In this document: positions 37,426 through 40,329 of the stretch, one piece after another
How positions within the stretch are numbered: the first letter of the stretch is position 1
Layout of the letters: each line of letters starts with the position of its first letter
Assembly (NCBI GenBank): GCA_048883105.1
Contig: JBHLQY010000005.1
Location: 1 to 57,284, forward strand
DNA length: 57,284 nt
Direction of reading: 5' to 3'
Source of the DNA: Candidatus Thorarchaeota archaeon
GTDB lineage: Archaea > Asgardarchaeota > Lokiarchaeia > Sigyniarchaeales > SOKP01
Program-made: the position numbers and the translations under genes
The notes under the pieces: generated by a model
Told to the model about the DNA's origin: nothing
Database searches by the model: none
What the model saw: only the letters and a program-made list of their open reading frames with translations

Positions 37426-38790
37426 TTAGTTTTCTGCGTTTATAACATCTAATTCTTTACAAATGAGGGGAATTTTAAATATTTCTGCGAAGGATGGAGT
37501 TGTCCGACCGTTATCACCATTGATTAATTCTTTGACATAAGTACCCCCCTGTGTTTCAATTATAAATTCAAATAAGTTAGGTTTGATATGTTGAGCTTCT
37601 ATGTTATAAATAATTTTCTTTCTTATGATATCAGCACGTCGATGAGAAACTCTACTTGGTGTTCTTTGAGAAATTTTTTGATTCTCAAATTTATTTTTTA
37701 ACTCATTTATTAAGTCCTTAAATTTATCCAAATTTAAACCTTTTTTAGCTTCTACTGATACTTTATATTTTTTTTTTGAACTTTCTGCTCTGAATTTAAT
37801 GCTAATAACTTCTTTTTTGTTACTATATCTTAGATCACAAATTCTTATTTTTCCAACATTGATTTGATTAATTTTTTTTTCAATTTTGTCTAAGTCTAAA
37901 GTTCTTATCTGTGGGTTTTTTAATTCTAGAATAAATGGTCTTCCAGTACCTAACATTCTCACATCAATATCTTCACGCCCAGCTCCATGAAATTTTGAAT
38001 CTGATGCATGAGTCTCTTTAATAAATTCAGGATTAATTAATTCTTCCACGCTTGTTTCGTATTTTTTACCAGAAAAATTGCAAATTTCGCATCCTTTTCC
38101 TTGGCAATTCTTACAAATCCAACGAGTTTGGGGGATGCCTCTAATTAGTTTATTGTATCTTCCAGCAATAAAAAGAGATTTAAATATTAATTCTATATTA
38201 AAATTTTCAAAACCTATTGAATATAAAAAAATGACATCGGGATTGTTAAATTCAGCTGGTTTTTTTAATTCCTTAGATGTTATTTTTCCAACAACACGAT
38301 TGAAATGGCTTTTAAACGACTCTGAATTTAAGAGATTTAATTCTGCTTTGAAAATATCTTCCCGATTAATTATCTCGGAATTTGGACTTGTGCCAATTAA
38401 AAAGCTATTAAATTCAATAGTTTTAACAAGTTCTTTTGCTTTTTCTACATAGATTTGTAAATTCGAAAAAATGTCGTTGCATAAATAGCACTTTTTGTTC
38501 AAATTGGCTTTGGAATAATCAAAGCCTTCATTCTCTAAAACTTTTTGAGCGGGTATAAATTTTGCGTTCTCAGCTAAAATTCTCAGATTATTCATTGCCG
38601 TCTTTTCATAATTCTTATCTCCTGAAAAATATTTTCTATGATTTTCCATAGTAAATGAAAGTAATAACGAGTTTCCTCTCTCTAAGTTTGTAGTACTTGT
38701 CCCTAATAATGCGAATATTCTTCCAAGACAATTTGGACAAATGTAATACTTTTGATAAATCTCTAAAACTCTGTCAAAAATTGAGTTCAT
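37426..38790 (-). CDS. pus10: tRNA pseudouridine(54/55) synthase Pus10
   Basis: GRYNKL.RGIPQT, FHGAGREDIDVRMLG, QGGTYVKELI. Confidence 0.98.
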   Translation of the reverse strand: MNSIFDRVLEIYQKYYICPNCLGRIFALLGTSTTNLERGNSLLLSFTMENHRKYFSGDKNYEKTAMNNLRILAENAKFIPAQKVLENEGFDYSKANLNKKCYLCNDIFSNLQIYVEKAKELVKTIEFNSFLIGTSPNSEIINREDIFKAELNLLNSESFKSHFNRVVGKITSKELKKPAEFNNPDVIFLYSIGFENFNIELIFKSLFIAGRYNKLIRGIPQTRWICKNCQGKGCEICNFSGKKYETSVEELINPEFIKETHASDSKFHGAGREDIDVRMLGTGRPFILELKNPQIRTLDLDKIEKKINQINVGKIRICDLRYSNKKEVISIKFRAESSKKKYKVSVEAKKGLNLDKFKDLINELKNKFENQKISQRTPSRVSHRRADIIRKKIIYNIEAQHIKPNLFEFIIETQGGTYVKELINGDNGRTTPSFAEIFKIPLICKELDVINAEN

Positions 38791-38967
38791 AACTTAACTA
38801 AATATAGTAAAAGATCATATTTTTTATTTTATTATAGAGAAGAAATGGTTATTAAAAAGATTTTAAAATAATTTATTTTTTTAATACATAATTAAAAATA
38901 TAGAATTAAGACACTAAAATAAAGTTCTATTCTAATCATAGATCTAAACTTGATTAAGTGTTATAAT

Positions 38968-39267
38968 ATGGAAAATGAAAAAAGAAAGCCAGCTAGTAGC
39001 CGATTAACTGGACACGTGAAAAAATGAGTCGTTTTCTGACTCATTTCACTCTGGTTCGATTATCGAAAAGGCTATGGCTTTATTAGTGTGAATGGCGACG
39101 AAGGACAAAAAGATATTTTTGTCCATTTTTCTAATATTGACATGGACGGTTTTAAAAAGTTGGATATGGGAGACCGTGTTGAATTTGAAGTAAAAGAAGA
39201 TACAGAAAAAGGAAAGGGACCTGAAGCTTTAAATGTAAAAGTTTTAGTAAAAGATCGTCGATATTAG
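38968..39267 (+). CDS. csp: Cold-shock domain protein, split: exon 1 38968..39021, exon 2 39052..39267 (89 aa spliced)
   Basis: Spliced product [89 protein letters not shown] has GxVKWF, RNP1 KGYGFI and RNP2 IFVHF; absent from the ORF track because of in-frame TGAs. Confidence 0.93.
39022..39051 (+). other. Candidate 30-nt bulge-helix-bulge (archaeal tRNA-type) intron in csp mRNA
   Basis: GTGA(39016-19)/TCAC(39046-49) central helix, 3-nt bulges AAA and TCT, perfect 8-bp intron stem AATGAGTC/GACTCATT; canonical cleavage restores GTG AAA|TGG TTC. Confidence 0.88.
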
Positions 39268-39324: not shown

Positions 39325-40329
39325 TTAATCCTCTTCTTCCCATCCTAATTCTTTTAAGACAGAGTCTAATGCTTCAGATTCTTCTTCTAAAACAAATTTA
39401 GTATCGTATTCTGAAGAAACTAATTGTGAGTCAAAATCGGGAGGAGGTAAAGCATCAAGAGATGGTAATTCATCATTTTTGGCTTCAGGAGCAGGTTCTT
39501 GAACTGGTATTTCGTGATATTCCGCTTCTTGAGGGGTTTGTTCTTCAACATCCATTGGTGTATAATCGTTAAGTGGAATAGGAGGTACCTCATCCTCGTA
39601 TAATCTAAATTGACTTTGATCTGCTTGTTTAATTTCTTGAAGAGTTTCTTCAGGAATCGATAAAGTTTCACCCTCTTTTGGAATCCCCACAATCATTGAT
39701 TTGGGAATGGATACAATGTTATTTGTTTCCAACTCTTCAATATCCTCAATACCCATTGCTTCTTTTTCTTCTTGATCCCATTCATCCAAATAACCTAATA
39801 AATCGTCCATTGCCGCTTTGTCATTATCAATTGAGGGTAGCGTTGCAACACTTGCTAAAGCTTCTTCTTCTTTTTGTTGTTGTTGTATTTTCTGTAGCTC
39901 TTCTTCTTGTAGAGAAAGTGCCATTTCAGAAATTTCCTCTCCAGAAATGATTATATTTAATTTTTTTGCCAATTCTCGCAGATAACCAAGATAATATCCA
40001 ATACGATATGGGACGCTTAAACCACTAAATACAATATAGCTTTCATTTATAGCCATTAAAATACTATATCCAGCAGCATTATGTAAAAGGATTTCCATCA
40101 ACGAACCGTGTTGAGTAGCTTTACTGAGTCGAAGTCCGAGGTCGATTAATGCTGTACTTGAAGCAGAAGTCGTATCAGCATCTAACTCTGATGAAGTTGA
40201 GGAGGCAACTCTTAATCCTACTGTTGATAAAACTGATAAATTGTCTAAATCTGTTTTATCTTCTTCTATTTTTAAAACATGCATAACTTTCTCTCTTATA
40301 TCCGCCTCTAATTCTCCCGATGCTGCCAT
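39325..40329 (-). CDS. Roadblock/LC7 domain protein with long acidic C-terminal tail
   Basis: VLSTVGLRVAS...SA...L......L..G.L.EILL....GY pattern; E/D/P-rich tail. Confidence 0.85.
   Translation of the reverse strand: MAASGELEADIREKVMHVLKIEEDKTDLDNLSVLSTVGLRVASSTSSELDADTTSASSTALIDLGLRLSKATQHGSLMEILLHNAAGYSILMAINESYIVFSGLSVPYRIGYYLGYLRELAKKLNIIISGEEISEMALSLQEEELQKIQQQQKEEEALASVATLPSIDNDKAAMDDLLGYLDEWDQEEKEAMGIEDIEELETNNIVSIPKSMIVGIPKEGETLSIPEETLQEIKQADQSQFRLYEDEVPPIPLNDYTPMDVEEQTPQEAEYHEIPVQEPAPEAKNDELPSLDALPPPDFDSQLVSSEYDTKFVLEEESEALDSVLKELGWEEED

Follow-up and report, generated by a model that had tools for sequence, protein, structure and literature searches.

A predicted bulge-helix-bulge intron in a cold-shock-domain gene of an Asgard archaeon and a patchy set of similar mini-introns in other protein genes of its lineage

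An insert of 30 nucleotides (nt) in a cold-shock-domain gene (csp) of an Asgard archaeon is most probably an archaeal endonuclease-type bulge-helix-bulge (BHB) intron, which would be removed from the csp pre-mRNA by the splicing endonuclease EndA and the ligase RtcB. It occupies positions 39022-39051 of the 57,284-nt stretch analysed here (the window), which comprises positions 1 to 57,284 of the forward strand of contig JBHLQY010000005.1 in assembly GCA_048883105.1, Candidatus Thorarchaeota archaeon. The source genome (G000 below, where G, C and L numbers denote genomes, contigs and loci) is a metagenome-assembled draft of 2.10 Mb in 89 contigs, with 30.3% G+C and a completeness of 82.65%. 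Because of the fold of the csp insert and the similar mini-introns in protein genes of its relatives, these Asgard archaea very probably splice some of their mRNAs. Judged from the genomes compared, the csp intron is part of a small, patchy set of BHB introns of 29-54 nt in protein genes, and six hosts were found: csp, rtcB, and the genes for a DeoC/LacD-family aldolase, a CCG-domain protein, an eS26-like protein and an FMN/FAD oxidoreductase. An earlier reading made from the letters of the window alone (the sequence-only reading) had described a single csp intron in an Asgard archaeon. The host assignment holds, the relatives being Promethearchaeota/Promethearchaeia, and the intron itself stands, but as one of several in the protein genes of this lineage.

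The csp gene begins with ATG at 38968 on the forward strand. Exon 1 (38968-39021, +) has 18 codons and runs through GGA CAC GTG AAA to the Lys codon of a G-x-V-K motif at 39021; the insert follows, and exon 2 (39052-39267, +; 71 codons plus TAG at 39265-39267) opens with TGG TTC GAT, its first codon being the Trp of W-F-D. In the unspliced frame (translation of 38968-39267), TGA stands at codons 20 and 24, both within the insert, and deletion of 39022-39051 gives an open frame of 89 amino acids (aa). The two in-frame TGA codons in the insert and the recovery of V-K-W-F in an 89-aa protein on its excision, both claimed by the sequence-only reading, were thus found at these coordinates. Exon 2 alone matched the Pfam CSD profile (PF00313) over positions 7-65 of 66 with an E-value of 2.7e-21 and a score of 75.7 bits against a cut-off of 27. 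As the match begins at profile position 7, the first six positions, or first strand, must be supplied by exon 1. At the end of this exon stands the G-x-V-K motif, which is followed directly by W-F in 48 uninterrupted orthologs. A shift of the deletion by one base in either direction alters the K or the W codon. In the canonical geometry of tRNA introns at position 37/38, each 3-nt bulge is cut between its second and third nucleotide. When deletions with starts within 200 nt and lengths of 12-149 were tried, the sole one that restored the motif was the one predicted by this cut rule, 39022-39051. The coincidence of the cut rule with the homology-defined junction, as first proposed for this gene, extends to the eight other split csp orthologs described below.

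In the predicted fold, the central helix is formed by GUGA at 39016-39019 (+) in exon 1 and UCAC at 39046-39049 (+) in the intron. The 5' bulge AAA (39020-39022, +) contains the predicted cut 39021/39022, and the 3' bulge UCU (39050-39052, +) the predicted cut 39051/39052. Between them lies the intron stem-loop h' (39023-39045, +), in which 39023-39031 pair with 39037-39045 around a loop at 39032-39036; its stem has eight perfect base pairs (bp; 39023-39030/39038-39045), and an optional G-U pair (39031/39037) extends it to 9 bp with a 5-nt loop. Together with the central helix, this 8-9-bp intron helix closes the 5' bulge, and all three elements recur in the minimum-energy folds computed for 37, 20 and 10 °C (-20.2 kcal/mol for the unconstrained fold at 37 °C). 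Constraining the fold to the strict motif gave -19.6 kcal/mol, a cost of 0.6 kcal/mol at 37 °C. The constrained fold places the 3' bulge within the 4-nt side of a 2x4 internal loop, so that the 3' splice site does not lie in a clean 3-nt bulge. It is also the only fold with an imperfect exon helix, an interrupted pairing of 39001-39013 (+) with 39054-39065 (+). The helices, the bulges and the 8-bp stem are therefore as the sequence-only reading had drawn them, its exon helix is a near match, and its 3' bulge becomes part of an internal loop in the constrained fold. Relaxed BHB motifs are named HBh', and because the outer exon helix is imperfect the modelled csp motif fits this relaxed class rather than the strict hBHBh'. 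When the whole source genome was searched in fixed register for lengths of 29-32 nt, a 4-bp central helix with a stem of at least 9 bp was met at 126 of 16.7 million places, a frequency of 7.5e-6.

A well separated csp ortholog group was collected from 61 relatives and a species-representative collection and contained 57 distinct loci (63 loci minus 6 fetched twice). Nine of the 57 are split: six at the K|W junction (site A) and three at R-K codons a few codons downstream (site B). At site A the insert is 30 nt long in the source genome (L001) and in G005 (L002), 53 nt in G004 (L003) and G006 (L005), 54 nt in G009 (L004), and 30 nt in G024 (L007), which belongs to another genus; inserts at the same K|W site are therefore present in five other genomes. 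The site-B inserts (L018, L021 and L019, all from one genus) measure 29-31 nt. The insert sequences differ among the split orthologs, and all nine loci have four of four central-helix pairs in the register whose cuts restore the protein, with GUGA/UCAC, GUGA/UCAU, GUAA/UUAU, CCGC/GCGG, UCGU/GCGA and CCAG/CUGG as helices. Likewise, all nine yield a full-length frame after removal of the insert. In the 53-54-nt site-A introns (L003, L004, L005), the 5' part aligns with the 30-nt intron and an extra internal hairpin is present; these alignments suggest that the intron grew or shrank in place at csp site A. In a csp gene tree built from 71 columns, both intron groups fall within supported clades that include intron-less genes. 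The resolution of the tree is weak, and a single gain with losses can therefore not be told apart from several gains. Three further loci are of note. Locus L069 has no interruption. Locus L084 (JAUVXW010000001.1) has no insert and reads TAG at the Trp codon, which is TGG in all other orthologs; a nonsense mutation, recoding or an error of sequencing may account for it. Locus L021 (G023:C7) has no in-frame ATG before G-F-V-K, the nearest ATG lying in a different frame; translation may begin at a codon other than ATG, or the gene may be interrupted once more.

The three gapless 30-nt site-A introns were compared in a structure drawn from one of them: 38 of 39 cells are paired, and 7 of 13 pairs have changed on both sides. 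For the central helix, 12 of 12 cells are paired, with one pair changed on both sides, and for the stem 26 of 27, with six of nine pairs changed on both sides. As controls, 0 of 500 shuffles were as good, and the slid controls paired 36-46% of cells.

A second protein gene of the source genome with such an insert is rtcB. The 29-nt BHB insert at C3:15989-16017 (+; L034:1646-1674) causes a frame shift between profile positions 47 and 48 and is predicted to form a 9-bp stem and 3-nt bulges, with UUGG/CCAA as the central helix. When it is removed by the cut rule, the frame and the G-Y|D-I-N-C-G motif are restored. The gene is split in three of the 55 genomes with an RtcB match (G000, G005 and G021, the last from another genus); all cells of the three inserts are paired (39/39), and the three stem substitutions are pair-preserving. 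In the source genome the C3 gene is the only RtcB gene found, and in G005, which is 98% complete, the sole RtcB matches found are the two exons. With the insert in the only RtcB gene found, the ligase mRNA would therefore need RtcB protein for its own maturation. A different arrangement was seen in G038 (C209:4484-5596, +), where the RtcB match falls into two pieces, positions 1-303 and 373-426, within one 459-aa frame, and about 70 profile positions are replaced or missing.

The DeoC/LacD-family aldolase gene of the source genome, truncated at a contig end, carries a 32-nt BHB insert near its C-terminus (C59:15177-15208, -; L087), and its exon 1 gives a Pfam DeoC match over positions 180-220 of 229 (E 1.3e-3). 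This insert is present at four of 12 loci (G000, G005, G006 and G012), the other eight being uninterrupted at that site; the G012 copy has a covaried central helix and a different stem. The aldolase gene is also interrupted at a second site, in G012 by a clean BHB insert of 36 nt and in G011 by an insert of 30 nt. The latter (L101, G011:C98, about 1570-1610) is in frame and contains TAA, and its GGCG/UGCC helix, located beside an A run, predicts an excision of 31 nt. The misfit could reflect a relaxed 5-nt bulge, a homopolymer assembly error or a dead gene.

A gene with two CCG domains, which are cysteine-rich and heterodisulfide-reductase-B-like, has a 29-nt BHB insert with an in-frame TAG 22 codons into the frame (C37:19670-19698, +; L196). 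It occurs at two of 12 loci (G000 and G006) and was not found in the ten other orthologs, of which that of G001 reads through the junction uninterrupted. Conversely, two genes are split in G001, a species of the same genus, and have uninterrupted counterparts in the source genome. These are an Oxidored_FMN/Pyr_redox_2 flavoprotein gene with a 30-nt BHB insert (C6, about 165873-165902, -; L214) and an eS26-like gene with one of 29 nt (C6, about 441913-441941, -; L228); exon 2 of the eS26-like gene alone matches Pfam Ribosomal_S26e at 26.2 bits. In each non-csp case the junction is given by uninterrupted orthologs. The cut rule reproduces the junction in nine csp, three rtcB, four aldolase site-1, one aldolase site-2 and two CCG-gene inserts as well as in the eS26-like and flavoprotein genes, and it restores the frame in every insert examined but one, the site-2 insert of the G011 aldolase. 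The four introns of the source genome have no other copy in that genome (matches of at most 23 nt, E at least 0.04) and no resemblance to each other; an origin from a mobile repeat was rejected because they are single-copy and unlike one another. The loops of otherwise unrelated mini-introns are alike (UUUUC, AUUUC, AAAUC, ACUUC, AAAUA) among the csp introns of L001, L007, L018, L019 and L021, the CCG-gene intron and the G001 eS26-like intron; the likeness may have arisen by chance, the RNA being AT-rich, or may reflect a constraint common to them.

The csp gene could be a pseudogene with a hairpin insertion that is never removed, its function being covered by paralogs. The in-frame stops within the insert would agree with this, the same genome encodes four further CSD paralogs, all uninterrupted, and the TAG of L084 shows that members of the group can be broken. 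The coding sequences point the other way. L001 and L002 differ by eight synonymous and two nonsynonymous changes, and dN/dS is about 0.15 between L001 and L007, both split, versus 0.18 between L001 and L009, which is intron-less. By this measure the exons of split csp genes are under purifying selection like those of unsplit ones, and no decay of exons was seen in the relatives. The full-length frames of all nine split orthologs and the covariation of the insert helices also argue against a pseudogene, as do the like inserts in the only RtcB match of G005 and in a ribosomal-protein gene of G001, both unlikely to be dispensable. We therefore consider a pseudogene very improbable.

The enzymes for the preferred reading, excision of a BHB intron by EndA and RtcB, are encoded in the source genome. 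It has two EndA-family genes (on C47 and C17), both passing TIGR00324; in a comparison with a fused two-repeat EndA model, one aligns with the catalytic half at the C-terminus and the other with the structural half at the N-terminus. An RtcB gene is present with archease beside it (C3:17192-17611, -), so both enzymes of the route that had been proposed from the letters, plus archease, are at hand. ARAGORN predicted introns in 14 of the 26 tRNA genes. These were rejected as a positive control, since the ARAGORN boundaries are imprecise and a motif with a 4-bp helix could be placed by chance near 13 of the 14. The available part of PMC5829648 reports an (alpha-beta)2 EndA with a broad-specificity L1 loop in Asgard archaea and states that the relaxed motif is cut only by (alpha-beta)2 and epsilon2 endonucleases.

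Removal of the insert from the RNA by enzymes other than EndA and RtcB, or by self-cleavage, would sit well with a 3' splice site outside a clean 3-nt bulge. However, nearly all the inserts show the exact two-cut geometry of EndA substrates, and the genome encodes EndA, RtcB and archease. For self-splicing, the core of a group I or group II ribozyme takes hundreds of nucleotides, and inserts of 29-54 nt are far too short; the whole window gave 0 Rfam matches at gathering score and contains no tRNA gene. This explanation is as poorly placed as the pseudogene.

Even less credible is a bypass of the 30 nt by the ribosome, of the phage T4 gene 60 type and with no RNA processing. A stop two codons past the last exon-1 codon and a stable hairpin filling the gap are features that resemble T4 gene 60. 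On the other hand, the take-off codon AAA does not match the codon before TGG: this gene has CTC there, and the other site-A introns have CTA or TAA. A bypass has no need for a 4-bp helix between exon and insert, yet this helix is conserved and covarying, and the same architecture recurs in six unrelated genes.

The insert was also seen in independently assembled DNA. X6 record 13, a contig obtained in another study, spans 38846-39203 gap-free, insert included. It carries 39026 G>A and, at the pairing partner of that base, 39042 C>T, so that a G-C pair has become A-U; its exon changes are three synonymous ones and one V to I. The covariation of BHB pairs thus extends from the site-A introns of relatives to this variant. 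A contig from a third study covers 38700-39061, and in four DNA contig sets no contig skips 39022-39051. An assembly or sequencing artefact, or an insert present in part of the DNA population only, for which the draft state of the genome could be adduced, may be set aside in view of these contigs and of the related inserts at the same site in five other genomes.

Further introns were sought by genome scans and by comparison with G001. A loose genome-wide scan combining the BHB motif with reading-frame logic returned about 17,000 solutions, and its background consisted chiefly of junctions between adjacent genes. The aldolase insert came from a compact-motif scan; candidates in an aminoacyl-tRNA synthetase gene (C8) and an acyl-CoA dehydrogenase gene (C79) were discarded, as their unspliced frames read on. 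In the census, 2.58 Mb of G001, in which csp and rtcB are uninterrupted, were compared with the source genome. About 1.01 Mb aligned at the nucleotide level, and at each of 161 indel sites of at least 12 nt we looked for a BHB that, once taken out, would link two frames broken in its presence. Five convincing cases emerged: csp, rtcB and the CCG gene in the source genome, and the flavoprotein and eS26-like genes in G001. On these genome comparisons, introns of this kind are rare, amounting to a few per megabase compared, differ between species of the same genus and have unrelated genes as hosts. A protein-level census against G001, which misses short exons, gave five candidates, two of which were in-frame length differences between distant paralogs; a further candidate was a frame change in an antisense open reading frame.

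Several of our results speak against an EndA/RtcB intron or reduce the weight of the evidence for it. The unconstrained fold at 37 °C pairs the 3' bulge bases with 39007-39012, and its stability is modest (z = -2.0), 6 of 200 shuffles being equally stable. The outer exon helix beside the 3' bulge amounts to 0-1 contiguous pairs in every csp ortholog, and a substrate with so poor an outer helix therefore needs a broad-specificity endonuclease; that the EndA of this host has such specificity is a prediction taken from the literature on Asgard EndA. Weak BHB-like motifs with a stem of at least 3 bp are common in a genome of 30% G+C (frequency 1.6e-3), so the motif by itself would prove little. 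The compact stem-loop screens, with 162 candidates at a stem of at least 7 bp in the first and 125 at a stem of at least 6 bp in the corrected version, gave no excess over ten shifted-cut decoys, and the motif alone therefore predicts nothing. The covariation set is small, at three sequences of which one supplied the structure, and the csp copy of G005 has one unpaired stem position. Among the other host genes, the G011 aldolase site-2 insert is one nucleotide off the strict cut rule, and the eS26-like intron has just three contiguous stem pairs. Finally, excision, ligation and the fate of the intron are inferred from DNA sequence.

Under the EndA/RtcB reading, the csp transcript would fold so that exon positions 39016-39019 pair with intron positions 39046-39049; this helix would be flanked by a 3-nt bulge and the 8-9-bp intron hairpin at one end and by a bulge or loop holding the 3' splice site at the other. 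The two-subunit EndA would cut after 39021 and after 39051, and RtcB, assisted by archease, would ligate the exons. The 89-aa protein could then be made from the joined mRNA only, since translation of the unspliced mRNA would stop after 19 codons. It is conceivable, though we hold it to be rather doubtful, that tRNA-type splicing gates the expression of chosen mRNAs in Asgard archaea of the Lokiarchaeota lineage. The csp intron must fold to be cut, and the output of this RNA chaperone might thereby be tied to temperature or to its own melting of RNA. The rtcB intron might make synthesis of the ligase dependent on existing ligase, in a self-referential loop, and introns gained and lost between sister species might supply new gates. 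If true, the closest relatives of eukaryotes would have a prokaryotic counterpart to regulated cytoplasmic mRNA splicing of the HAC1/XBP1 type.

Watanabe and colleagues are said to have described the cbf5 pre-mRNA intron of Crenarchaeota in 2002. Like the introns reported here, the cbf5 intron is a short coding-region intron in an archaeal protein gene that is said to rely on tRNA-type machinery and is patchily present. It has also been linked in the literature to hetero-oligomeric endonucleases, as would be the case here. It differs in being found in Crenarchaeota and in one gene, whereas here the hosts are Asgard archaea, with several host genes and several sites per gene family; moreover, cbf5 splicing was shown experimentally, while the Asgard introns are known from sequence alone. 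In the source genome, cbf5 is uninterrupted. The patchy distribution of the cbf5 intron was ascribed to gain and lineage-specific loss in the portion available of PMC2738675 (Yokobori et al. 2009). According to the accessible text of PMC7714728 (Schwarz et al. 2020), the cbf5 intron was the only one reported among archaeal mRNAs before the 5' untranslated region (UTR) case of Haloferax volcanii, HVO_1309. As far as that text goes, HVO_1309 is likewise an mRNA substrate of the archaeal splicing endonuclease. It differs in that the motif lies in the 5' UTR and leaves the reading frame untouched, in a euryarchaeon with an enzyme of the homodimeric type, and in that cleavage was shown in vivo and in vitro, whereas csp cleavage is predicted from the gene sequence.

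Asgard tRNA introns, in the available parts of PMC11291895 and bioRxiv 10.64898/2026.10.13.758758, share the lineage, the BHB motif and the presumed enzymes with the introns described here, but their hosts are tRNA genes and not protein genes. The same parts describe many recent and patchy gains, with no arrival route identified. The word 'mRNA' has 0 occurrences in the text available for the bioRxiv preprint, and the introns reported in that of PMC11291895 are tRNA introns. A more distant parallel is HAC1/XBP1 as described in the accessible portions of PMC4090602 and PMC13149111: a short, structure-defined intron is cut by a protein endonuclease, a tRNA ligase (RtcB in animals) does the joining, and splicing alters the protein made. 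Unlike the present case, it belongs to a different family, with the IRE1 nuclease instead of EndA/TSEN, a pair of stem-loops instead of a BHB, and regulation by stress.

In the literature searched, which covers few subscription journals and no supplements (cases could be mentioned in those of PMC5829648, PMC11291895 and the 2026 preprint on tRNA introns), we found no BHB intron in Asgard mRNAs, csp or rtcB; the sequence-only reading, too, had known of none in a csp gene or an Asgard mRNA. What is new here are predicted BHB introns in Asgard mRNAs, the kind itself being known from cbf5 and Haloferax. The interest lies in the wider pattern, with six host genes that include a ligase and a ribosomal protein, and with turnover between sister species. 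This offers a testable system for the origin, spread and tolerance of protein-dependent mRNA splicing without a nucleus or spliceosome, and it may place the tRNA-type mRNA splicing of eukaryotes in an evolutionary context. There is a practical side as well: gene callers mis-annotate such Asgard genes as truncated, frameshifted or pseudogenes, which can distort inventories of conserved and eukaryote-like proteins in Asgard genomes.

In its neighbourhood, csp is the lone gene on the + strand, flanked by a Pus10 gene and an acidic open reading frame, both on the - strand. The latter (39325-40329, -), directly downstream of csp, encodes a very acidic product of 334 aa without a Pfam match. Outside the protein genes, G001 C4:391578-391742 and source-genome C64:13129-13262 share two short stretches that are 80-90% identical, separated by 30 extra nt in G001; this resembles an RNA gene, possibly for a tRNA, in which one of the two species has an additional intron.

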